Positions 6,327-64,000 of a DNA stretch of 64,000 nt are shown in pieces. Source of the DNA: an uncultured Gammaproteobacteria bacterium (GTDB lineage: Bacteria; Patescibacteriota; Patescibacteriia; UBA10025; JAHIVO01). The notes beneath the pieces are model-generated. The model was not told where the DNA came from. It saw nothing but the letters and a program-made list of their open reading frames with translations, and did not search any database. A program made the position numbers and the translations under genes. Within the stretch, counting starts at the first letter, position 1. Each line of letters starts with the position of its first letter. The stretch spans positions 58,013-122,012 of the forward strand of contig CAZQBL010000007.1 of the NCBI GenBank assembly GCA_964592105.1, written 5' to 3'.

Positions 6327-7727
<1,401 letters not shown>

Positions 7728-7812
7728 TTAGAATTGATAATTTATAATTTTGGCTAAAAATATTAGTGATGATAATTCGCAACCATTCGCAAATATTGAC
7801 GCGTATTCGTGT

Positions 7813-8724
7813 CTAACTGATCGCCGCTCTGCCTGCACTGATATCCGCCAATTCCGCCGTAATTGCCTGCTGCCGAGCTTGATTAAAACTCAAAGTCAGA
7901 TCTTCAATCATATCGGAAGCGGAGTCCGAAGCATTGCGCATAGCCATCATCCGGGCAGAATGTTCTGAAGCATTTGATTCCAGCAAGGCCTGAAAAATCT
8001 GCAACTCGATCAAACGATATAACATCTGGTCCAGTACCGCGTCCGGTGACGGCTCAAAAATATATTCAAAGTTTTCTGTTTCACGGGGTTCGGGATATTG
8101 ATCAATGGCAAACCCCAGTTCATCGTCCTGGCGATCCAAGGGCAGTAATTTTTTGACACGGGGTTTCTGGGAAATGGCCGAATAATAATCAGTATAGGCA
8201 ATGGATACTTTGTCATATATGCCTGACAGATATTGATCAATAACCATCTTAGCCAGCGGCGTCACCTCACTGATTCGCTCAGCCGTATCCAGCTTATCGA
8301 ACTCGGCCACGATATCATGGCCGTGCTTAAACATGACTTCCTTACCACGCTTACCCATCAGAAATATCTCGGCCTCAACATCGACATTCTCTTCCTTATG
8401 TCGGCGCATATAGGCCGCCACCGAATCGATGATTTCCCGGTTAAAGCCACCGCACAAACCGCGGTTAGACGCGATCAAAATCAAACCGACTCTTGAAACC
8501 TTTTTCTGCCGGCGCTGCAACAGCGGATGGTAGGCTGGATCGGTCCGGGCTGATAAATCCCTAACAATATCCCAGGCGGCAGTAGCATAAGCTCGAGTAG
8601 CCAAAACAGCCTTAACCGCCTTGCGCATTTTTGAGGCAGCCACCAGTTCCATCGCTTTGGTGATCTTCCGCGTATTGATTATGGACTTGATACGTCTTTT
8701 TATTTCCCTATTCGCTGCCGGCAT
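7813..8724 (-). CDS. atpG: F1 ATP synthase gamma subunit
   Basis: 303 aa; N- and C-terminal gamma coiled-coil helices (MPAANREIKRRIKS..., ...LTLSFNQARQQAITAELADI). Confidence 0.9.
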   Translation of the reverse strand: MPAANREIKRRIKSIINTRKITKAMELVAASKMRKAVKAVLATRAYATAAWDIVRDLSARTDPAYHPLLQRRQKKVSRVGLILIASNRGLCGGFNREIIDSVAAYMRRHKEENVDVEAEIFLMGKRGKEVMFKHGHDIVAEFDKLDTAERISEVTPLAKMVIDQYLSGIYDKVSIAYTDYYSAISQKPRVKKLLPLDRQDDELGFAIDQYPEPRETENFEYIFEPSPDAVLDQMLYRLIELQIFQALLESNASEHSARMMAMRNASDSASDMIEDLTLSFNQARQQAITAELADISAGRAAIS

Positions 8725-8758
8725 AATTTAATTACTGTTTACTAATAACGGCGGCTTA

Positions 8759-10270
8759 TTACTGATTACTAAACTTAGTCTTTTTAAACTCGGTGATGGC
8801 ACTTTTTAACTTTTCTTCAAGTGCAGAACTTAAATCTTTTTGCTCTAAAATTGCTTTCAAGACAGCCGCTTGATTCAGTTTCATGAATGCGTGGAATTCT
8901 GTTTCAAACTCTTTGATGCGTTCCACAGGGACATCGTCGAGAAAACCATTCACAGCGGCATACAAAATTGCTACTTGGTTTTCCACCGGCATCGGCTCAA
9001 ATTGTCCCTGTTTCAAAATTTCCGTCAATCGTTTGCCGCGCTCTAATTGCTTTCGGGTGGATTCATCAAGATCAGAACCGAATTGGGCAAAAGCGGCTAA
9101 CTCACGATATTGCGCCAAATCAAGACGCAATTTTCCGGCTACTTTTTTCATGGCTTTAGTCTGGGCCGCGGAACCGACACGGGACACAGACAAACCAACG
9201 TTCAAAGCGGGGCGAATACCCTGATAAAACAGATCTGATTCCAGATAAATTTGTCCGTCAGTGATAGAAATAACGTTCGTCGGGATGTATGCAGAGATGT
9301 CACCAGCTTGCGTTTCGATAATCGGCAAAGCAGTCAGTGATCCGCCACCATAATCTTCATTTAATTTTGCGGCGCGTTCCAATAATCTTGAGTGTAAATA
9401 AAAGACATCTCCCGGATATGCTTCTCTACCCGGCGGTCGGTGCAAGAGCAATGAGATTTCACGATAAGCCCAGGCATGTTTGGAAAGATCGTCATAAACA
9501 GCTAAAACATCTTTGCCTTGGTCCATAAAATATTCACCCATGGCACAACCAGAGTATGGGGCAATATATGAAAGTGAAGCCGGATCAGAGGCGCCAGCCA
9601 CCACGATAATCGTATGATCCATGGCTCCATGTTTTTCGAATTCCGCCACGATCTTGGCAATCTTGGATTCTTTCTGGCCAATAGCCACGTAAATACAAAT
9701 ACAATTTTTGCCTTTTTGATTGATAATGGTATCAAGGACTAGAGCGGTCTTGCCGGTCTGGCGGTCGCCGATAATCAATTCGCGCTGACCGCGGCCGATG
9801 GGAATCATTGAGTCAATGGCCTTGATGCCGGTTTGCAGCGGCGTAGTAACTGATTGGCGGGTGATGACGCGCGGGGCGATCTTCTCTACCGGATAAAACT
9901 TCTTCGTTTTGATCACACCTTTACCGTCAAGCGCTTCACCTAAAGGATTAACCACCCGGCCGATGAGTTCATCACCGACTGGCACTTCCAAAATTCGCCC
10001 GGTACTTTTGACCGTATCGCCTTCCCTAATGCCCTGGTAATCGCCCAAAATAATAGCACCAACGGAATCTTCATCCAAATTCAAAGCTACTCCATATTTT
10101 CCGCCGGGGAATTCAAGCATTTCCGAAGCCACGGCATCAGACAATCCAGAAATTCTGGCAATACCGTCACCGATCTCTTCAACCGTGCCGACTTTATCTT
10201 TTGACACCGCAGTTTTGAATTCAGTAATTTGTTTTTTTAATTCTTCGATAATGTAATCTCGATGTGACAT
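8759..10270 (-). CDS. atpA: F1 ATP synthase alpha subunit
   Basis: GDRQTGKT P-loop; alpha-subunit conserved blocks. Confidence 0.95.
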
Positions 10271-55264: not shown

Positions 55265-56480
55265 ATGTTTTTATTATTAATAAACTTTGCCAATTAATTA
55301 TCAATAAAAACATTATTAGAGCGGCGCTTCCCCATTTTTTCAAAAATCGTGGCAACAACTGCAACAAGCCGACCGCCATGATCAAACCGTAAATGCCGAT
55401 AATCGAAAACATATACCTACCCTGGGGCTGGTAAAAACTCAAATTATAACCGAAAACTCCGACTAGAATAACAGCCGCCAAAATAATCATCAAAAGTATT
55501 GACGCCCGCCTGTCCTTATCCATAATTTTGAATTTATTAAATAAGAAAGCAATAAAACCGATTATGGCTAGCAGCCCCAACACCTCCACAATTACATAAT
55601 AGACCCTCGGCAAAGCCAGATCAAAATACCCAAACCTGGCCCAAAAACTTTCATATAACGTTTTCAGCCAATTCCAAATGCCTGATAAATTTAAAAAATC
55701 CCGGTGCTGCTCTGAATACCACAAATCTTTCAAATAATTAAAACCAGTCAAACTGCCGTAAAGCCTCTGGTTCCTTGCCAGCCACCAAACCATGACCGCG
55801 TACAATGGAGAAAAAACCAACAAGCTGTGCAACAACTGTTTTTTTCCTGATCTCCAAAGAGCTGTTATAAAAAGGACTGACACGAATGGCCATAAAACCG
55901 TTTTTGTAAGAAAAGCGGCTGTTCCGACCAGGCAAAAAACAAGCGTCCGGACCCAATTCCAACCTCCTTTGACGATGAACAAAATCAACAACAACAGACA
56001 CAAAGCTGCCAACATATTGGTCAGAACATCGTTATTAATAATTCCCGACATATAAATGAACTGGGGATTCAGGGCAACCAGAGCTGTGGCCGTCAAAGAT
56101 ATCAAGTCATTACCCAAAAATAACTTGCGCATCATAAAATAAGTCATGATAATTACGGTGCTGGATATTATCAGTCCGAAGAACCGCAGGGCCACTACGC
56201 TCCCCCGTTCTGACCATGATTTTGTCAGTTGGTAAATCGGCTGAACTAACCAGTAATACAATGGCGGCTGGTGCGATTCTTTGGTTACCTTTTCTGAAGT
56301 TATGACGGGTAATTTGCCGGTCTGACCGACAGTTTTTACATAATAGTAATGCATACGTTCATCCGGCGCCTTAAAAGTATTGGTGAATAAAATGAACAAA
56401 GAACCAAAACCAAGATATAAAAGTAAAAACAAAACAAAGGTGATGACTGAGTAGTTTTTCCGTATATATTGAATCGTCAC
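55257..56480 (-). CDS. GT-C fold membrane glycosyltransferase (GT39/GT83, PMT/ArnT-like)
   Basis: ~11 TM helices; the first extracytoplasmic loop carries KAPDERMHYYY (DE motif of GT-C enzymes). Overlaps the downstream surface-protein gene by 8 nt. Confidence 0.5.
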   Translation of the reverse strand: MTIQYIRKNYSVITFVLFLLLYLGFGSLFILFTNTFKAPDERMHYYYVKTVGQTGKLPVITSEKVTKESHQPPLYYWLVQPIYQLTKSWSERGSVVALRFFGLIISSTVIIMTYFMMRKLFLGNDLISLTATALVALNPQFIYMSGIINNDVLTNMLAALCLLLLILFIVKGGWNWVRTLVFCLVGTAAFLTKTVLWPFVSVLFITALWRSGKKQLLHSLLVFSPLYAVMVWWLARNQRLYGSLTGFNYLKDLWYSEQHRDFLNLSGIWNWLKTLYESFWARFGYFDLALPRVYYVIVEVLGLLAIIGFIAFLFNKFKIMDKDRRASILLMIILAAVILVGVFGYNLSFYQPQGRYMFSIIGIYGLIMAVGLLQLLPRFLKKWGSAALIMFLLIINWQSLLIIKTYG

Positions 56481-56756
56481 AAGTGAAAAAAATAATTACG
56501 GGTTACACAAAAACTAGCCCTGGTTAATCCGGTGCTTGTGTCGTATTTATTATAAATACTTGTCATAATATAATTTTTTTTGATTTTTGTTTTTCGTTTA
56601 ACTAATACTATTATATCATAAAAAAAGAGTTTTAGCAAGGTCGCCTTGCTTATTTTTATTTGTTAAAAACTTTTTAAAATTGTTCATTCCATAAATTACA
56701 AATAATGGTGGGCGATAAAAAAGGGGCCGCACGTTTTTCGTGTGACCCCGTAAGGT

Positions 56757-57482
56757 TCAGGTGTCGCAGTAGACAGTGAAAATAAAAGGATAGTCTTCCT
56801 CGGCATCGTAAATAAACACTCTTGCTATCTCGGTTTTTTTAGTCATCGGAGGAAAATAAAGTTGCGCCCTGATTGTCTGATCATGATTCAACAACAGCTT
56901 TTCGTTAATGGGCACTATGTCAATAGATTTGAGGTACAAAACCTTGCCATGACCATAGATAATATGAGTTCTCTGGTCTGCGCTGACATACACCTTCGAT
57001 GTCCGCGGATTGCTCCAGGATACCGTTACTCTGGTGAATTCTGTTGTCATTTTTATTTCCTCAAATTTCAGTGTGTAGTTTTTAGCCTGAGGGGTAACAA
57101 TGTGCTGTCTGACAATTACTGTTTTTTCAGAAACTGGACGAGAACCACTTATATCCTCAAGTAGATGCCCGCCGTATTTCACAACCACCCATCCCACAAT
57201 TACTATAATAGCAATCGTGAATAGAGTGGAAATGATTCTGGAAACTCCGGATTTCTTTGAGACCCGGACACCAGATGCCGGGGCAGATTTCCTGGCTCCC
57301 ATCTCGGGTTTGGCCAACGGCTTTTTTTCTTTTGACTCAATTTCCTCAAGATCGGCCGCCCACTGTTTAGCAAACAGTGAAAAGCCGCCAATCACAAGTG
57401 AAGTAAAGAGGAGGCCAGTTATGACCAACACTGGGAAGGGTAATTGCCAAACTTCTTTGAATAATCTAAATAATTCTGCCAT
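56757..57482 (-). CDS. membrane protein with a C-terminal beta-rich domain (possible NfeD-like partner of the adjacent SPFH protein)
   Basis: Two TM helices, a Lys/Ser-rich linker, then a beta-strand-rich ~130-aa domain. Ends 10 nt downstream of the SPFH gene stop on the same strand. Confidence 0.35.
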   Translation of the reverse strand: MAELFRLFKEVWQLPFPVLVITGLLFTSLVIGGFSLFAKQWAADLEEIESKEKKPLAKPEMGARKSAPASGVRVSKKSGVSRIISTLFTIAIIVIVGWVVVKYGGHLLEDISGSRPVSEKTVIVRQHIVTPQAKNYTLKFEEIKMTTEFTRVTVSWSNPRTSKVYVSADQRTHIIYGHGKVLYLKSIDIVPINEKLLLNHDQTIRAQLYFPPMTKKTEIARVFIYDAEEDYPFIFTVYCDT

Positions 57483-57491
57483 GGCTCCTCC

Positions 57492-59099
57492 TTATGCCTT
57501 GTTACCAAGTCCGAGAAGATTCAAAATCTTATCGATATCCGGTACAGCGACAAGGTTAATACTCGTGCCCTGCAAGGCCTTGGCCATTTCAGCCAATGGT
57601 TTATCGCCAAAGACTAGAAACTTAAGGTAAGGCCCCACCTTCTTCACATCATCATCAGTAATCTTAGCCATGGCTTGACTCTTGGCTTCAAATTCGGCCA
57701 AGATCTTCGCCTTATTGGCTTCTGCCTCACCCCGACCTTTCAGTATAATCGCTGCTTTTTCGCCTTCAGCCTCCTTAATTCTGGCCTTGGCTTCAAAAGC
57801 TTTCTGATCAATCTGGACCTTTGAAATGGCCTTCTTGTCTAGTGCCGAAACCATGGCTTCGGTGGGTTTTACGCCCCTGACCACTACGCGTTCAAACTTA
57901 ATACCCAAATACTGCAAATCATCCTTGAGTATCTGGTTTAGCTCTTCAGAAAGCCCGTCACGCATTGTCAGGGCTTCCTCCAGACTGCCAATCCCACTGG
58001 CGACGTAGGCCCGGACAAACGAGGCCACCTTATCACCGATGAGACCCAACATCAGTTTTGAACTACCATCTTCGGAAATACGGGTCGTTTCTTCCAGTTT
58101 TGCCTTGATATCCCAGTACGAGGTTCCTAGTTCCGTGACCACGTCCCAAATCTTATCAAAGTGATAAGCAATGGAGGTGTCCACCTCAATCGATTGCGAT
58201 TCATCACCGATGATTATCACGTTCTCCGGAACCATATCATAGTACTGCACGGCTAGAGGGAGTTTAACTAATGAACCTAATTTCCAGGGCACCAAATGAG
58301 GTCCACGATCAACTTCTTCATAGGGCATACCCATAAAAAATTTGATGCCTTTTTCGGTGTTTCCGACCAACCTGATACTTAAAAACAGGTAAAAAAATCC
58401 AGCCGTGCCAAAGAATATCAAAAAAATCAAGGTGTAGGGACCAAAAACCCAATCGGTCTTTTCCAGTCTTAACACAAACCATATTAAAGCGGAGATAATA
58501 ACCAGAACCCCGGCAATCATTATTGGAAATAGCCCCTTTTTTACGTACTCACGTTGGGCCTCCCTTTTTTCTTTCTTCAACTTACGGAAGCCCTCGATTT
58601 CAACTACTGTCTTTGCTCCACTGATACCGGTACTGGTAATCGTTCCGCCTTCACGGTACGCTTCCATAACATTCTCGTTAAATTTCTCCAGCTCACTTTG
58701 GCAGTCTGCTATCTCTTTTTCAAGTTTGGTAATTGCGACGGAGTCTGACTTTCTCCTTTTTTCTTTTTTTAGGGCCTTCTTTCTTCGGAGCTCATTATTC
58801 AGTTTTCTCTTGGACTCAAACAATTTTTTTCTTAGCAAATCGTAATTTTTCTGCTCCTTTCGAAACCCCCGTTCCAGCTCAAGAATTTTATCATTCGTAT
58901 CTTTGATGGCCTTTTTGCCTAGTAGAGCCACCTTCCACCAATGAATAATCGCAGTAATTGAAAACAGTACAACATTCATCAAAAGATAGACCGGCCAGCA
59001 CCAGTCACAGCCGGTAGCAATAACTCCAATTAACCCAATGGCTGAAAGGGCAATAGCTACCCAGAAAAACGACTTGAAGAACTTATTTAAAGCTTCCAT
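57492..59099 (-). CDS. SPFH/Band-7 (flotillin/stomatin-like) membrane protein with a long coiled coil
   Basis: N-terminal TM helices, a K/E-rich coiled coil, further TM helices, then an SPFH core (...FERVVVRGVKPTEAMVSALDKKAISKVQIDQKAFEAKARIKEAEGEKAAIILKGRGEAEANKA). Confidence 0.7.
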   Translation of the reverse strand: MEALNKFFKSFFWVAIALSAIGLIGVIATGCDWCWPVYLLMNVVLFSITAIIHWWKVALLGKKAIKDTNDKILELERGFRKEQKNYDLLRKKLFESKRKLNNELRRKKALKKEKRRKSDSVAITKLEKEIADCQSELEKFNENVMEAYREGGTITSTGISGAKTVVEIEGFRKLKKEKREAQREYVKKGLFPIMIAGVLVIISALIWFVLRLEKTDWVFGPYTLIFLIFFGTAGFFYLFLSIRLVGNTEKGIKFFMGMPYEEVDRGPHLVPWKLGSLVKLPLAVQYYDMVPENVIIIGDESQSIEVDTSIAYHFDKIWDVVTELGTSYWDIKAKLEETTRISEDGSSKLMLGLIGDKVASFVRAYVASGIGSLEEALTMRDGLSEELNQILKDDLQYLGIKFERVVVRGVKPTEAMVSALDKKAISKVQIDQKAFEAKARIKEAEGEKAAIILKGRGEAEANKAKILAEFEAKSQAMAKITDDDVKKVGPYLKFLVFGDKPLAEMAKALQGTSINLVAVPDIDKILNLLGLGNKA

Positions 59100-59424
59100 A
59101 ACTTCCTCCTTTAAAGGAATTATTGTTTTATTATTGTTTTATTTACTTTTCAATGATCTTTCCTTAACACCTTAACCCCAAGTGTGCCTGTTTGCGCTTG
59201 CTTGATAATTTACACCAAGAGTAAATTATCAGAGCCTACAATATTACACCATTTTGACGATTTTGTCAAGTCCACTTTAAAAAATACTTATCAACAAGCG
59301 GAAAATTATGAAAAAATAATCTAATTTACCACCTTGACAATATAAATCACCTATACTAGGCTTGTTTAAAAAGCCAATCAACAAAAAAATAACAAGAATC
59401 GAACTTTGAAAAAAGGAGGAGAAA

Positions 59425-59859
59425 ATGAAAACCTATGATGATATGACTCCAGGATTTGTCTTTAGTTTGTCGGCGATAATTTTTGTAATTTCGTTTACGT
59501 TCCTAATTTCCTACCTAACTTTCTACGACTCGACTCGAGATTACGTGGTGATAAAATACGAGATAATCAATCCTGGTGGTTTTCAGAACAAAGTAAAAGC
59601 AGCAGGATATCTAGGAGCTTTTATCTATAATCGTATTAAAACAAAACCAGAACTGGCAAGATTTAATAAAAAAATTCATTGTCGGCGCCTCTCTTCAGAC
59701 TTAGAATTTCATTTCCAACGTGAATTCAAAGATTATGAAGAGGCGCTAAACTGGACACAAGAAGCAGAAAAAGAAATTGATAAATTACTATCAGAGAACC
59801 AATCTTACCTCAAACTAGTAAACATAAAACCTCCTGTCCACAAAATAGAATTAAGATAA
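59425..59859 (+). CDS. hypothetical membrane-anchored protein (144 aa)
   Basis: Strong SD (AAAAGGAGGAGAAAATG), one N-terminal TM helix, no recognised family. Confidence 0.45.
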   Translation: MKTYDDMTPGFVFSLSAIIFVISFTFLISYLTFYDSTRDYVVIKYEIINPGGFQNKVKAAGYLGAFIYNRIKTKPELARFNKKIHCRRLSSDLEFHFQREFKDYEEALNWTQEAEKEIDKLLSENQSYLKLVNIKPPVHKIELR

Positions 59860-59917
59860 CTTAGTTTTGCTTAAGCCTCTTATTTTAATAAGGGGCTTTG
59901 GTTTTTCCTGCCCATCG

Positions 59918-60778
59918 CTATCTCTTTAACGTCCGCCCATCACTTATCATCTCAACATCACCCTCTTTATCATTTCTCAAAATTTGAACCCCCAAGCCAT
60001 TCAATTTATTCAAGGTAATTTTATGAGGATGGCCGAATTTGTTATCCTGGCCGACCTGAATAACCGCGTACTGCGGGCAAACTGCTTTCAAAAACTCCAT
60101 TGACGACGAATACTTGCTGCCGTGATGTCCGACTTTCAAAACATCGCTTTTTAATTCTGCTGGCTTTTGCCTTAACAGTTGTCTTTCAACTGTCTCGGGT
60201 GCATCACCGGTAAAAAGGAATGAAGTATCCTGATATTCCAGACGGGTAACTATCGAAGTATCATTAAGATCCTTAAATTCTTTTTGACTGATATCCTCAA
60301 ATGGATATAAAATTTCCAAATCCGCCTCGCCAAACTTATAAACCTGACCGGCCGCTGGTTTAACCATGGCGATTCCTTTTTGGGAAATCAAATCTCGCCA
60401 TTCCCTAAAATCCGCAGAACTGCTGGCCACTTCAGTGTATAAAACTTTTTCAACCTTGTAGCGCTTGACCACCTCAACCAAGCCGGCCACATGATCGGAG
60501 TGCGCGTGAGTCAGAATCATCAAATCTATGGTGTGATCATAAAAAGGCAGAGCTCTGCCCAGTTTGCTCAGCACCGACGAATCAGGTCCGCCGTCAATCA
60601 AGATATTCTGATGCGACGGAGTTCTGATAAAGATACTGTCACCCTGACCGATATCGAAAAAATACACCTTTAACCGGCTGTCCTGCTCATTAAAATAAAC
60701 TGAAAAAAGCAGAAAAGCCGAAATTATCAGTAAGCCGATTAAACCTGCAAGTATTTTTTTGTTTCTCGTTTTGGTCAT
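59918..60778 (-). CDS. ComEC/Rec2-related metallo-beta-lactamase domain protein (membrane-anchored)
   Basis: N-terminal TM helix, then VYFFDIGQGDSIFIRTP...LMILTHAHSDHVAGL (MBL HxHxDH motif). This region corresponds to the C-terminal domain of full-length ComEC. Confidence 0.75.
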   Translation of the reverse strand: MTKTRNKKILAGLIGLLIISAFLLFSVYFNEQDSRLKVYFFDIGQGDSIFIRTPSHQNILIDGGPDSSVLSKLGRALPFYDHTIDLMILTHAHSDHVAGLVEVVKRYKVEKVLYTEVASSSADFREWRDLISQKGIAMVKPAAGQVYKFGEADLEILYPFEDISQKEFKDLNDTSIVTRLEYQDTSFLFTGDAPETVERQLLRQKPAELKSDVLKVGHHGSKYSSSMEFLKAVCPQYAVIQVGQDNKFGHPHKITLNKLNGLGVQILRNDKEGDVEMISDGRTLKR

Positions 60779-60875
60779 TGACCTGTAAAAAGATAAATGC
60801 TAAACTAACAAAACCTTTGCTATTTGAAAATTTACTAATATAAACCCCAAACTTTCAAAAAATAAGGAGGACGTT

Positions 60876-62045
60876 TTGAGCAAAATTACCCTCACTGCCA
60901 TCAAGGCAGACATCGGCAGCATCGGCGGACACATAAAACCCTCACAAGCAATTCTGGAAGCGGTCAGAACGGCTATTGGCGAAGAAAAGGCGATAACAGA
61001 CTTCCGCATCACCTACACTGGCGACGATATCCTGATACTCATGGCGCATCATGAAGGGATCAACAGCTGGGTTATCCATGCGGCCGCCGATCGTGTTTTC
61101 CGCCAAGCCACGGAAATTGCCAAACGACAGGGCTTGTACGGGGCCGGTCAGGACCTTTTGACCGACGCTTTTTCCGGAAATGTCAAAGGTGCGGGTCCCG
61201 GAATCGCCGAGATGGAATTCGAGGAAAGGCCAAATGAGGCCTTTATCGTCTTCGCCGCGGACAAAACCGATCCCGGTGCTTACAATCTGCCTTTGTACCT
61301 GGCTTTCGCCGATCCCATGTACAACGCCGGCTTACTACTGACCGCGCACATGCAAAAAGGCTTCACTTTTTCCATCATCGACGTCAATTACGCGGAATGC
61401 AAGCAATGCGGAAAATTCCATTTTACCGATCAGCGCTGCGCTGAGGCCACGGCTAACAACCCCAAAGGCGACCGGCTCATAAAACTGTCGGCGCCCGAGG
61501 ACATCTACAAAATCGCCGCTCTGCTCCGCGACGGCGAAAGATTCGCCATCCAGTCCATCCATTCCCGATATGATGGTTCCCAAGCTGCCTCTGTCTCCAC
61601 CACCCGGCTCCACAACATCGCCGGCAAATACACAGGTAAGGACGATCCGTGCGCCATTGTTCGGGTCCAAGGCTCATTTCCAGCGACGGGAGAAGTGCTT
61701 TCCCCCTTTGCTCTGGGACATTTGGTGGGCGGCTTCATGCGCGGTTCGCATAACGGCCCGCTGATGCCGGTAAAACAAAATGAGATTATTTCCTTTTTCG
61801 ACGGCCCGCCGATTGTTTCCTGCGCCGCTTACTGCGTCAAGGACGGCAAGCTGACCGAAGCTGTTGATGTTTTTGACCACCCCGTATGGCACTATATCCG
61901 CCAGGAAGTTGCCCGCAAGTCAGTGGATATCAGACGTCAAGGATTCTTCGGTGCGGCCATGCTGCCCATGACCGAGCTTGAATATGGCGGCATTGTCGCC
62001 ATCCTCCAATCTCTTGACACACAGTTTGAGATTGTTCCAAGCTAA
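60876..62045 (+). CDS. fbp: fructose-1,6-bisphosphate aldolase/phosphatase (class V FBPase, bifunctional)
   Basis: TTG start after AAGGAGG. The N-terminus SKITLTAIKADIGSIGGH...GDDILILMAHHEG...LYGAGQDLLTDAFSGNVKGAGPGIAEMEFEE matches the archaeal-type FBP aldolase/phosphatase signature (KADIGS..GH, Y..GQDL.SD.FSGN..G.GPG.AE). The gene is ~54% GC against ~40% in its flanks. Confidence 0.85.
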   Translation: MSKITLTAIKADIGSIGGHIKPSQAILEAVRTAIGEEKAITDFRITYTGDDILILMAHHEGINSWVIHAAADRVFRQATEIAKRQGLYGAGQDLLTDAFSGNVKGAGPGIAEMEFEERPNEAFIVFAADKTDPGAYNLPLYLAFADPMYNAGLLLTAHMQKGFTFSIIDVNYAECKQCGKFHFTDQRCAEATANNPKGDRLIKLSAPEDIYKIAALLRDGERFAIQSIHSRYDGSQAASVSTTRLHNIAGKYTGKDDPCAIVRVQGSFPATGEVLSPFALGHLVGGFMRGSHNGPLMPVKQNEIISFFDGPPIVSCAAYCVKDGKLTEAVDVFDHPVWHYIRQEVARKSVDIRRQGFFGAAMLPMTELEYGGIVAILQSLDTQFEIVPS

Positions 62046-62067
62046 AAAAACACTCCATTATTAAATC

Positions 62068-62092
62068 GCTGGTATTTTACCGGCGGTTTTTT
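62068..62092 (+). terminator. Rho-independent terminator after fbp
   Basis: GCTGGTA-TTT-TACCGGC stem-loop followed by GGTTTTTTG. Confidence 0.4.
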
Positions 62093-62188
62093 GTCTGCTT
62101 AGCAAAATTTACGAGCCGAAGTAAATAAAATAAATTAAAAATCGGTCATGAAAATTTTGTAAAGGCAAACAATCCCGCTTATCGAGTT

Positions 62189-63724
62189 TCAACTTGAGAA
62201 ACGAGATTTTTCAGTTATTTTCAAAAAGCTCTTTCTAAAAAGTATAAATATCAAAATTCCATAACCTACTACTAGCCACCACCAACTGATATTGCCAATT
62301 GAAAATGAGGCGAAATTTAACGTTGAAAATTTTTCCACAATAAATATTATATAACTTAAGATTGTCCAGACAATCCAGGCGGAAATATGTCCCGCCGGAA
62401 GCCAGACCAGAGATAATAATCCGGTCATAAACCCAAAACCCATGGCTACTGGTATAGCCGGCAAAATCAAAACATTGACCAAGGGTGCGACTAAAGAAAA
62501 TCTCCCGAACTGCCACAGAATCAAAGGCGTGGTCATGATAATAGCGGACAAAGTCGCGGTCAGAGTCTGCCTGATCTCCAAAATTTGCGGCAGCCAAGAC
62601 AACCATCGTTCTAAAAACGGCGAGAGATAAACCAAACCAATAGTCGCCAGAAACGACAATTGAAATCCCGTGTCAAAAAATAATACTTTAGGATTAATCA
62701 GAACCATGATCCCCGCCGTTACCGCCAGCGCGTTAGTTATCCGGCTCAAACGCCCCAGTTGCCTAGCTAGTAAAACCAGCATACCCATAATCCCCGCCCG
62801 CACCACCGAGGCCTGGGCTCCGGTCATCAAGACAAAGAAAACAATGGCGCCCAGCGATACCCAAAATGATTTTTTCCGAGAAATCCACAAAGACCTACAC
62901 ACACTCAATATCAAAACCCCAATAATAGTAATGTTATAACCGGACAAAGCCACAATGTGGGTAGTGCCGGTGCGGTTGAAACTGGCCATCAGATCATCGG
63001 GAATGGATTTTTTGGTCCCCAAAATCAAGCCGCCCAGAAAAGAGGCCTGCGGTTCTGGCAGGACCTGTCCAATAGCTTGCATAAATTGGTTTTTAACCGA
63101 CAGTAGTCCGGACATAATCAAATTGCCCTGATCGTGCGCCAAAACCTTAATTTCTGGACGGTAACAAACCGAATAGATGCCGTATCTAGCTAAATATTTA
63201 TCATAGGCAAAATCTCGCTGTCCTGCCTCTGACTCAAAAGTCAAAGCTACCGGCGTCTGGAGTTGACATTTAATATCCAGTAAATCACCATAGCGGTATT
63301 CGGGATACAAATTTGTTTTAACCAAAACCTTGCCCGTAACAAACGCGGGCATATTGGCCAAGCCCCTCACAATATTTGTCGTCAACTTGACATGATCTTT
63401 TCTGACATCCGGCTCCGCACTAACGAGACCGGCCCAGCTGACCTCCTTATTATTATAAAACTGAATGTTTTGAGTCGTCAGCCTAGGTACGGAAAAATCA
63501 TATCTGAAAACACCCAGACCGAAAAAGATAAGCAAAAAACCTATTAAACGACCACGGTGGTTTTGCCAAAAAAACGTAATGACTAAAATGCCCACCAAGC
63601 ATAGGGCGTAAATTGCAAGAAACGAAGTCGGCACCACAGACCCAAAACCCACGCCGATAATAAAAGCCAGAGATATGATTAAGAATAATTTTGGTCTGGA
63701 TCGTGTCGTCATAAACCGATACAA
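62189..63724 (-). CDS. comEC: ComEC/Rec2 competence protein, membrane channel part (DUF4131 + Competence domain), lacking the MBL domain
   Basis: 511 aa, ~10 TM helices; ComEC competence-domain sequence (GTTHIVALSGYNITIIG...LVLLARQLGR...). The MBL domain is encoded separately at 59918..60778. Confidence 0.75.
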   Translation of the reverse strand: MYRFMTTRSRPKLFLIISLAFIIGVGFGSVVPTSFLAIYALCLVGILVITFFWQNHRGRLIGFLLIFFGLGVFRYDFSVPRLTTQNIQFYNNKEVSWAGLVSAEPDVRKDHVKLTTNIVRGLANMPAFVTGKVLVKTNLYPEYRYGDLLDIKCQLQTPVALTFESEAGQRDFAYDKYLARYGIYSVCYRPEIKVLAHDQGNLIMSGLLSVKNQFMQAIGQVLPEPQASFLGGLILGTKKSIPDDLMASFNRTGTTHIVALSGYNITIIGVLILSVCRSLWISRKKSFWVSLGAIVFFVLMTGAQASVVRAGIMGMLVLLARQLGRLSRITNALAVTAGIMVLINPKVLFFDTGFQLSFLATIGLVYLSPFLERWLSWLPQILEIRQTLTATLSAIIMTTPLILWQFGRFSLVAPLVNVLILPAIPVAMGFGFMTGLLSLVWLPAGHISAWIVWTILSYIIFIVEKFSTLNFASFSIGNISWWWLVVGYGILIFILFRKSFLKITEKSRFSS

Positions 63725-64000
63725 TCAATCTCAATTAAAAAATTATCAATTCCCGGCGCTAGAATAAAGATAATCCATGGGCTTAGACACTAACCCTGCG
63801 TGTATGGAATTTTGGTGGATGTAATTTAATTTATGCCGCATTTTTCTAGGAGGATATATATTGAAGTAGTAAAATGTTTTTTCCTATATTTTATTGACTG
63901 AAAGAATGTGGACAATCCTATTATTAATCCCATAATGGACATCGGGCAGCGACGAGTCCTTGCTCACTGCTTTGGAATAGAGCGAAAATGAGAGCTTTCG

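Follow-up and report, generated by a model that had tools for sequence, protein, structure and literature searches.

Was a gene for the competence protein ComEC cut in two by the insertion of a metabolic gene? The question arises at positions 59918 to 63724 of a 64,000-nucleotide stretch of contig CAZQBL010000007.1 (hereafter, the window), where a gene for the channel half of ComEC (comEC-N) and a gene for a ComEC-type metallo-β-lactamase (MBL) protein lie on the minus strand, parted by a plus-strand gene (fbp) for a fructose-1,6-bisphosphate (FBP) aldolase/phosphatase. An original prediction, made from the letters of the window, held that insertion of a foreign fbp gene had split an ancestral comEC, and it named an ancestral two-gene arrangement as its fallback. 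Our analyses revealed that the fallback was the correct reading and one that is essentially published (PMC6744442): a two-gene ComEC is very likely ancestral, with the fbp cassette inserted later between genes that already existed, and the locus represents a known architecture in an ordinary variant of gene order. The three open reading frames (ORFs) that had been described are all present in the sequence, on these strands and at these positions:

59918 to 60778, minus strand: standalone ComEC-type MBL (nuclease domain) gene, 286 amino acids (aa), N-terminal signal-anchor
60876 to 62045, plus strand: bifunctional FBP aldolase/phosphatase gene (fbp), 389 aa, TTG start, class V, PF01950
62189 to 63724, minus strand: comEC channel gene (comEC-N), 511 aa, TTG start, OB-fold DUF4131 and Competence transmembrane domain

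The two minus-strand genes together encode a complete ComEC

The channel protein matched PF13567 DUF4131 (E = 2.1e-12, 47.5 bits against a cut-off of 31.6) and PF03772 Competence (E = 5.8e-51, model positions 1-267 of 270). The true start of comEC-N may be an ATG in the same frame at 63712; the stop codon of the gene lies at 62189-62191, and the MBL protein is encoded by a separate ORF ∼1.4 kb away. The N-terminus of the MBL protein is rich in Lys and Arg (MTKTRNKK) and is followed by a single hydrophobic anchor, which bears out the prediction that this half has a transmembrane (TM) anchor and a Met of its own. The metal-binding motif of the protein is intact (H91-A-H-S-D-H96, HxHxDH). It matched PF00753 with an E value of 3.4e-19, its best NCBIfam match was the C-terminal third of TIGR00361 ComEC/Rec2 (positions 422-663, E = 1e-36), and its best matches in the PDB were ComEC 30bt_A residues 511-789 (E = 2.7e-38) and 9ic4_A, a "Competence protein." Neither half reached the TIGR00361 equivalog cut-off of 190 bits (73.9 and 126.3 bits). 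Competence, OB-fold, and ComEC-type MBL features were all found, distributed over two polypeptides and not on a single three-domain chain, a lack that is shared by almost all CPR; the MBL domain is supplied in trans, which is also the case in most Patescibacteria.

The halves tile full-length ComEC without loss or overlap, in agreement with the predicted channel-then-MBL order, which both the domain matches and the alignment to a solved ComEC identify as that of the intact protein. Specifically, channel residues 17-502 aligned to residues 9-494 of 30bt_A (801 aa) and MBL residues 11-282 to residues 511-789; on the fused homologue at locus L057 (791 aa), the channel protein aligned to residues 43-483 and the MBL protein to residues 510-782 (here and below, L-numbers denote comparison loci from other genomes or metagenome contigs, and L001 is the window's own contig). 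The window comes from Ga0212092_1000022, a metagenome contig of 168 kb. The break point between the halves falls immediately before the helix leading into the MBL domain. As the break lies in the loop before the MBL-carrying helix, the two proteins together reproduce a complete ComEC. The tail of the channel protein is basic (RKSFLKITEKSRFSS), as is the MBL N-terminus, and since both fit the positive-inside rule the break point would be cytoplasmic, with the MBL domain predicted to lie outside the membrane as in fused ComEC.

Relatives without fbp carry two adjoining genes

At L004, the closest relative that lacks fbp (85% identity in both proteins), the two genes lie on the same strand and meet at the junction TAG-tt-ATG, and a GGAG is located inside the end of comEC-N at this tight stop/start junction. 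The junction at L006 and L007 (64% identity), which also lack fbp, reads TAA-t-ATG, and at L176 (64%) the MBL gene is located 8 nt downstream of comEC-N. At L177 (62%) a same-strand downstream gene, whose identity is unconfirmed, overlaps the end of comEC-N before the contig stops, and at L012 and L013 the halves are classed as adjacent. Where a split would lead one to expect a single-chain comEC at the syntenic site, two ORFs were thus found in L004, L006, L176, L012, and L013. Moreover, the signal-anchor and start codon of the MBL protein are present in genomes without fbp too.

Homologues of the two halves were examined as the best 120 for each. The 120 channel homologues (down to 43% identity) measured 376-522 aa, ∼500 aa where complete, and the shorter ones appear truncated; the Competence domain was present in all of them, DUF4131 in nearly all, and an MBL domain in none. 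The 120 MBL homologues were all standalone proteins of 273-347 aa, and those with a taxon-specific source name came from Patescibacteria, including Kerfeldbacteria and Parcubacteria. The channel protein is 45-85% identical to many Patescibacteria proteins. A survey of 80 species-representative (GTDB-species) loci, recovered with the channel-protein alignment and sorted by ORF structure, gave the following classes:

MBL gene adjacent but separate: 37 of 80 loci
MBL gene downstream at an estimated gap of at least 200 nt: 19 of 80 loci, 17 of these with at least one ORF of at least 80 aa
no MBL gene within at least 1.5 kb: 16 of 80 loci
fused comEC: 4 of 80 loci, 3 of them labelled Anaerolineae
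contig too short: 4 of 80 loci

In the passages of the literature that bear on this point, MBL-fused ComEC is described as essentially absent in the candidate phyla radiation (CPR) (Méheust et al. 2019, PMC6744442) and a DUF4131+Competence ("DC") domain profile is listed as common (Pimentel & Zhang 2018, PMC6299819). Beyond Méheust 2019, our literature search turned up nothing that explicitly describes a two-gene ComEC or a CPR FBP aldolase/phosphatase. Adjacent, separate genes in close relatives, with nothing between them and no fused counterpart, are what the original prediction itself had named as counting against a split; the split of an ancestral comEC is therefore refuted.

The fbp cassette was inserted into a pre-existing gene pair

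The cassette measures ∼1.4 kb, lies on the opposite strand between comEC-N and the MBL gene, and consists of a promoter, fbp, and, in the window, L172, and L173 (together, the window group), also a terminator. The prediction that it is an insertion held up: it is missing at the site from the closest fbp-less relative, and fbp was found at the comEC-N/MBL junction in none of the 80 species-level loci. The layout of channel gene, opposite-strand fbp, and MBL gene was found in at least six lineages. The loci that share it with the window are L005 (fbp 74% identical), L008/L009 (72%), L010 (65%), L172 (93%), and L173 (MBL 82%), and fbp is present or absent among close relatives. A metagenome scan with the fbp alignment yielded, among the matches listed, only outgroup genes of 59-65% identity and no further close contexts; the related fbp genes of L011 and L175 stand in unrelated contexts. 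The gene order prfA, glmS, PDDEXK gene, comEC-N, [fbp], MBL, Band_7 was evident in most loci with recovered flanks, whether they carry fbp or not, with the PDDEXK gene and the Band_7 gene each missing from some. This synteny, shared by loci with and without fbp, therefore indicates that the cassette was inserted into a pre-existing gene pair.

The target-site duplication or direct repeats that might have been expected in the spacers did not materialize: at the ends of the cassette we found only short AT-rich chance repeats, such as TGAAAATTT at 60825 and 62149. No transposase or integrase was found in the cassette. These repeats were rejected as evidence of transposition, the matches being only short and AT-rich.

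Neighbor-joining trees were built for the fbp protein, for comEC-N, and for a concatenated set. The fbp proteins of the window, L172, L173, P0243, L005, and L008 form one clade, and their pairwise identities rank in the same order as those of comEC-N. The comEC-N tree joins (window, L004) with (L005, L008) at a bootstrap of 60; this topology requires no more than one gain and a single loss, in L004. Accordingly, we favor, with some reserve, a single origin of the cassette within the inner clade (window, L172, L173, L005, L008/L009); the L010 copy may go back to an older, shared insertion or to a separate event.

The difference between the window and L004 extends beyond the cassette itself:

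60664 to 62257: block without DNA homology to L004, 1594 nt in the window against 165 nt in L004

The block, placed by converting DNA homology positions as window = 70779 − L001, begins 69 nt inside the end of comEC-N, runs through the entire cassette, and ends 115 nt inside the start of the MBL gene. In blastn, L001 and L004 are 87% identical up to L001:8521 and 85% identical from L001:10116. The MBL anchor of the window is 30% identical to that of L004 and 82% identical to that of L173, while for the rest of the protein the corresponding values are 87% and 84%. Because the breakpoints lie inside the flanking genes, the difference between the window and L004 is a block replacement, as expected if homologous recombination took place with a diverged allele. 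The L004 MBL anchor resembles that of a clade with a body identity of only ∼60% (50% over 32 aa).

Several observations weigh against a single insertion followed by loss. In the concatenated tree, the fbp-less L006 stands beside L005/L008. The fbp-bearing L010 branches outside several fbp-less lineages, and its fbp does not group with the others. By parsimony, one gain with one or two losses equals or exceeds two gains, depending on the position of L006, and with L010 included one gain requires at least five losses; these counts come from neighbor-joining trees on single proteins with weak deep support. The search for donors of both junction blocks returned none, the window anchor resembles nothing specific, and the replacement may have run in either direction. 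Finally, the persistent high GC content at third codon positions (GC3) of fbp in the window group is unexpected if the insertion is old, and an old insertion with high GC3 would need codon selection or a more recent replacement. Since parsimony does not separate one gain with losses from two or three gains, we rely on the homology of the spacers and the monophyly of fbp.

A possible, though clearly less probable, alternative is that the comEC-N/MBL junction is a recurrent insertion site, which fbp entered repeatedly or through which it spread by recombination via the flanks, with natural transformation supplying the DNA. The interleaving of fbp-bearing and fbp-less lineages in the host trees fits this idea, as do the two to three gains that parsimony allows, the separation of the L010 fbp from the site-linked copies together with its spacers of different lengths (139 and 31 bp), the window/L004 replacement with breakpoints in both flanking genes, the presence of other cargo at the junction (Methyltransf_11 at seven loci, Peptidase_S11 at one, and unknown ORFs), and the un-ameliorated GC3 of fbp in the window group. 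However, the fbp genes of the window group part from those of L005/L008 in the same way as their hosts do and at a comparable depth, the spacer upstream of fbp is homologous in position across these lineages, and no junction block is closer than expected to any sampled donor. In addition, DNA similarity between the window and L005 stays continuous along fbp and on into the MBL gene, without any jump. A step further, the junction might be a recombination-fed cargo platform that exchanges metabolic genes among relatives, the window/L004 replacement being one such event; we regard this as unlikely. Insertion of the cassette once within the inner clade, between two existing genes, thus remains the preferred account.

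The middle gene encodes a class V FBP aldolase/phosphatase

The fbp protein matched PF01950 FBPase_3 over the whole model (positions 1-361 of 361; 484 bits, E = 3e-145). It scored 494.5 bits against NF041126, the FBP aldolase/phosphatase model, just below the curated equivalog cut-off of 520 bits, and the shortfall coincides with an insert of ∼23 aa that splits the alignment. Its PDB matches were 3r1m, 1umg, and 3t2b, with E values of 1e-87 to 1e-90. The PF01950 and NF041126 matches thus identify the gene as that of the class V bifunctional enzyme: the naming of an FBP gene in the original prediction was sound, and the type is archaeal and not that of classical fbp. FBP aldolase/phosphatases have been found chiefly in archaea and deep-branching bacteria.

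The GKYTGKDDP stretch (residues 250-258), D12, D50-D51, D93, and D129-K130 are invariant in a 9-sequence alignment and align with ST0318. GKYTGKDDP would be the catalytic Schiff-base Lys/Tyr stretch, and the acidic residues would bind Mg. The full-length PF01950 match and the conserved motifs make the enzyme probably active. Judged by the function of its family, its probable role is to make fructose-6-phosphate from triose phosphates in a cell whose upper glycolysis is patchy. The insert has the following features:

61398 to 61472, plus strand: insert within fbp, ∼23-25 aa (residues about 175-199), C175-x2-C178-x3-H182-x5-C188

The insert was found in the aligned subfamily members of 388-427 aa and is missing from the aligned homologues of 366-370 aa; the solved 3r1m lacks it, and the alignment to that structure breaks at query residues 175-200. 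Its Cys and His residues are invariant in the 9-sequence alignment. The insert resembles a zinc knuckle and marks a 388-427 aa subfamily of CPR and other uncultured lineages.

The composition of fbp only partly indicates a foreign origin

With a GC content of 0.542 and a GC3 of 0.622, fbp is the top outlier of the 51 retained window ORFs of at least 100 aa (z ∼3.0 for both; window means 0.437 and 0.474), confirming that the middle gene is GC-rich. In the window group, including the copies at L172:49-1218 and L173:531-1700, the GC3 of fbp is 0.62-0.67 compared to 0.45-0.53 in the flanks. By contrast, in L005/L008 it is only 0.47 vs. 0.40, and the GC3 of the L010 copy (0.285 vs. 0.22-0.32 in the flanks) shows no excess. 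An excess of total GC was seen in every host. Since L010 shows this excess without an excess of GC3, part of it is due to amino acid composition. As a rough reference for highly expressed genes, we used the F-type ATP synthase alpha, gamma, and beta genes of the window (6327-10270, minus strand), whose GC3 of ∼0.52 is mildly above the window mean. Because these genes reach only ∼0.52, expression-linked codon bias is not the full explanation of the GC3 of fbp.

Beyond the small site-linked group, the nearest fbp homologues are only 59-65% identical, and the few with named sources come from Deltaproteobacteria/Thermodesulfobacteriota, Aminicenantes, Proteobacteria, and one other Patescibacterium. 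CPR upper glycolysis is patchy and shaped by lateral transfer (Jaffe et al. 2020, PMC7304191), a natural setting for fbp. The label "foreign" that had been given to fbp is therefore only partly upheld: the patchy family and the GC3 excess speak for it, and the share of the GC excess owed to amino acid composition does not. We rejected GC as proof of a recent foreign origin, given this share and a GC3 excess that is large only in the window group.

Signals in the spacers and a proposed working of the locus

The two spacers around fbp contain the following elements:

60778 to 60806, plus strand: fbp promoter TTGACC-17-(TG)cTAAACT, -35 overlapping the MBL start codon, extended -10
60779 to 60875: divergent spacer, MBL start to fbp start, 97 bp
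60817 to 60830: conserved block TTGCTATTTGAAAA, in the fbp 5' leader within the same divergent spacer
60817 to 60844, plus strand: promoter-like TTGCTA-16-TATAAA
60858 to 60829, minus strand: candidate MBL promoter, weak
60864 to 60870, plus strand: Shine-Dalgarno (SD) sequence AAGGAGG, five bases upstream of the fbp start
62046 to 62188: convergent spacer, fbp stop to comEC-N stop, 143 bp
62063 to 62089, plus strand: intrinsic-terminator-like hairpin, 12 pairs, 5 of them GC, followed by TTTTTTG

The spacer from the MBL start to the fbp start is 96-97 bp long in the window, L173, L005, and L008, and all four keep the same order of blocks: TTGAC at the MBL start codon, TGnTAAAnT 17 nt later, TTGCTATTT, and AGGAGG. 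The promoter TTGAC[CGA]-17-TGnTA[AG]AnT is conserved in five lineages, L010 among them. The SD, the terminator-like hairpin, and the TTGCTA-16-TATAAA that had been put forward as the gene's own signals are all present. The last of these is probably not the main fbp promoter, given that its TATAAA is not conserved in L005/L008 and that the upstream extended -10 is conserved in five lineages; the upstream TTGACC promoter probably fills that role. The convergent spacer and its hairpin are conserved in L172 and L173, and in L005 and L008 the corresponding spacer measures only 9 and 6 bp. The conserved block TTGCTATTT[GA]A of the fbp 5' leader may serve as an operator, or it may belong to a divergent MBL promoter. 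An Rfam scan of positions 56000-64000 returned no match.

From these data we propose the following working of the locus. The ancestral state would be a channel protein and a separately translated, membrane-anchored MBL nuclease, encoded by a tightly coupled pair on one strand in the neighborhood prfA, glmS, PDDEXK gene, comEC-N, MBL, Band_7. In a subclade that includes the window organism, the ∼1.4-kb fbp cassette with its own promoter would then have entered the junction on the opposite strand; for the inner clade, a single origin is the most likely course, followed by loss or replacement in L004 with breakpoints within both flanking genes. The channel protein would bind and conduct single-stranded DNA, and the anchored MBL protein would act as the extracellular nuclease for the other strand. 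By analogy with ComEC, the locus most likely works as a two-piece ComEC, and the two proteins are presumed to come together in the membrane, where one DNA strand would be degraded and the other taken up. Nuclease activity of the fused MBL domain is known from Bacillus and Moorella (PMC8579336, PMC12455585), and in a cultivated Saccharibacterium deletion of comEC abolishes transformation while comEC is dispensable for growth (PMC10633639). As the cassette replaces the tight junction with two spacers, the MBL gene is uncoupled from comEC-N and would have to be expressed from a spacer; the 97-bp divergent spacer is the predicted source.

It is quite improbable that the placement of fbp is itself functional, that is, that fbp is co-regulated with DNA uptake and that sugar carbon from imported DNA passes through triose phosphates to fructose-6-phosphate, for example for GlmS. 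The layout and the blocks of the 96-97 bp spacer are kept over substantial divergence (fbp 72-74%), glmS lies two to five called genes upstream of comEC-N in the loci with recovered flanks, and a passage of PMC6744442 proposes that CPR organisms scavenge DNA for nucleotides. Nevertheless, close relatives lack fbp at the site, related fbp genes stand elsewhere (L011, L175), the Saccharibacterium comEC is dispensable for growth and serves transformation (PMC10633639), and most of the conserved blocks are promoter and SD elements of a generic kind. Last, that the fbp cassette cut an intact single-chain comEC into two newly independent ORFs is exceedingly improbable, for although the channel-MBL order is that of fused ComEC, the halves abut without loss, and the cassette really is an insertion, close relatives without fbp have two ORFs a stop codon plus 1-2 nt apart, all 240 listed homologues of the halves are standalone, fusions are confined to 4 of 80 loci (3 labelled Anaerolineae) and are essentially absent in CPR according to a passage of PMC6744442, and the MBL signal-anchor and start codon are found in fbp-less genomes too. 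The preferred reading thus remains an ancestral gene pair that later received the cassette.

Neighboring genes and other cargo

Downstream of the MBL gene, at 57492-59099 on the minus strand, the window encodes an SPFH/Band_7 protein of 535 aa that has TM segments at its N-terminus and a long, charged stretch of coiled-coil-like character; this gene is a conserved neighbor downstream of the MBL gene in several relatives. Between the two lies a 144-aa ORF (59425-59859, plus strand) with no family match and its own terminator at 59873-59898, which was found at that spot only in the lineage of the window.

Other genes also occupy the space between channel and MBL genes. In seven Magasanikbacteria-like genomes, a Methyltransf_11 gene (class I SAM methyltransferase, ∼200-220 aa) lies there on the same strand:

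L023:6543-7196
L026:4554-5177
L030:6916-7587
L037:2711-3334
L042:6484-7098
L045:6782-7435
L054:4303-4908

At the same junction, L075 carries a D-Ala-D-Ala carboxypeptidase (Peptidase_S11), and L022 and L025 carry unknown ORFs. Directly upstream of comEC-N, an IS200/IS605-type Y1 transposase is encoded at L006:5384-6004 (where the match is faint), L008:7691-8230, and L009:3651-4190. In L006 and L009 the transposase gene and the start of comEC-N share 4 nt, in L008 a 48-aa ORF call stands between them, and the transposase gene occurs in fbp-bearing and fbp-less genomes of the same samples.

On the window's contig, beyond the right end of the window, glmS (L001:2861-4695) is called as a 132-aa GATase and a 479-aa SIS ORF that overlap by 4 nt, and the glmS of relatives is a single gene of 613-672 aa. 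The gene may truly be split, or the two calls may result from a frameshift or from faulty assembly; glmS is a stronger candidate than comEC for a recent split.

Comparison with known systems

The attractive account of a gene split by insertion is corrected here, and current understanding of ComEC and of the FBP aldolase/phosphatase is unchanged. The locus offers a natural experiment in uncoupling the two ComEC genes, and the fbp insertion a small, datable example of the patchy gain and loss of central-carbon enzymes in reduced CPR genomes (cf. Jaffe et al. 2020).

Compared to ComEC/Rec2 (TIGR00361; the solved full-length structures 30bt and 9vc6; Bacillus subtilis ComEC), the window encodes all three modules in an unchanged order, and its pair covers residues 9-789 of the 801-residue 30bt_A. 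It differs in having two polypeptides, broken before the pre-MBL helix, whose genes are parted by an opposite-strand gene. Set against the MBL-less CPR ComEC (PMC6744442, PMC6299819), the channel gene of the window is typical, with DUF4131 and Competence domains and ∼500 aa. The passages on ComEC in those two papers make no mention of MBL as the next gene or of genes inserted between, whereas in our survey the MBL gene was adjacent at 37 of 80 loci and nearby at 19 of 80. Thus, the MBL domain that CPR ComEC is said to lack is in most cases encoded by a neighboring gene. This bears on any attempt to judge from domain content whether Patescibacteria can process incoming DNA. The fbp protein, in turn, is a full-length match to class V FBPases (Sulfolobus tokodaii ST0318, 3r1m/1umg; Thermoproteus neutrophilus, 3t2b) and keeps GKYxGKDDP and the acidic motifs; unlike the solved archaeal enzymes and the 366-aa bacterial forms, it has the C-x2-C-x3-H-x5-C insert.

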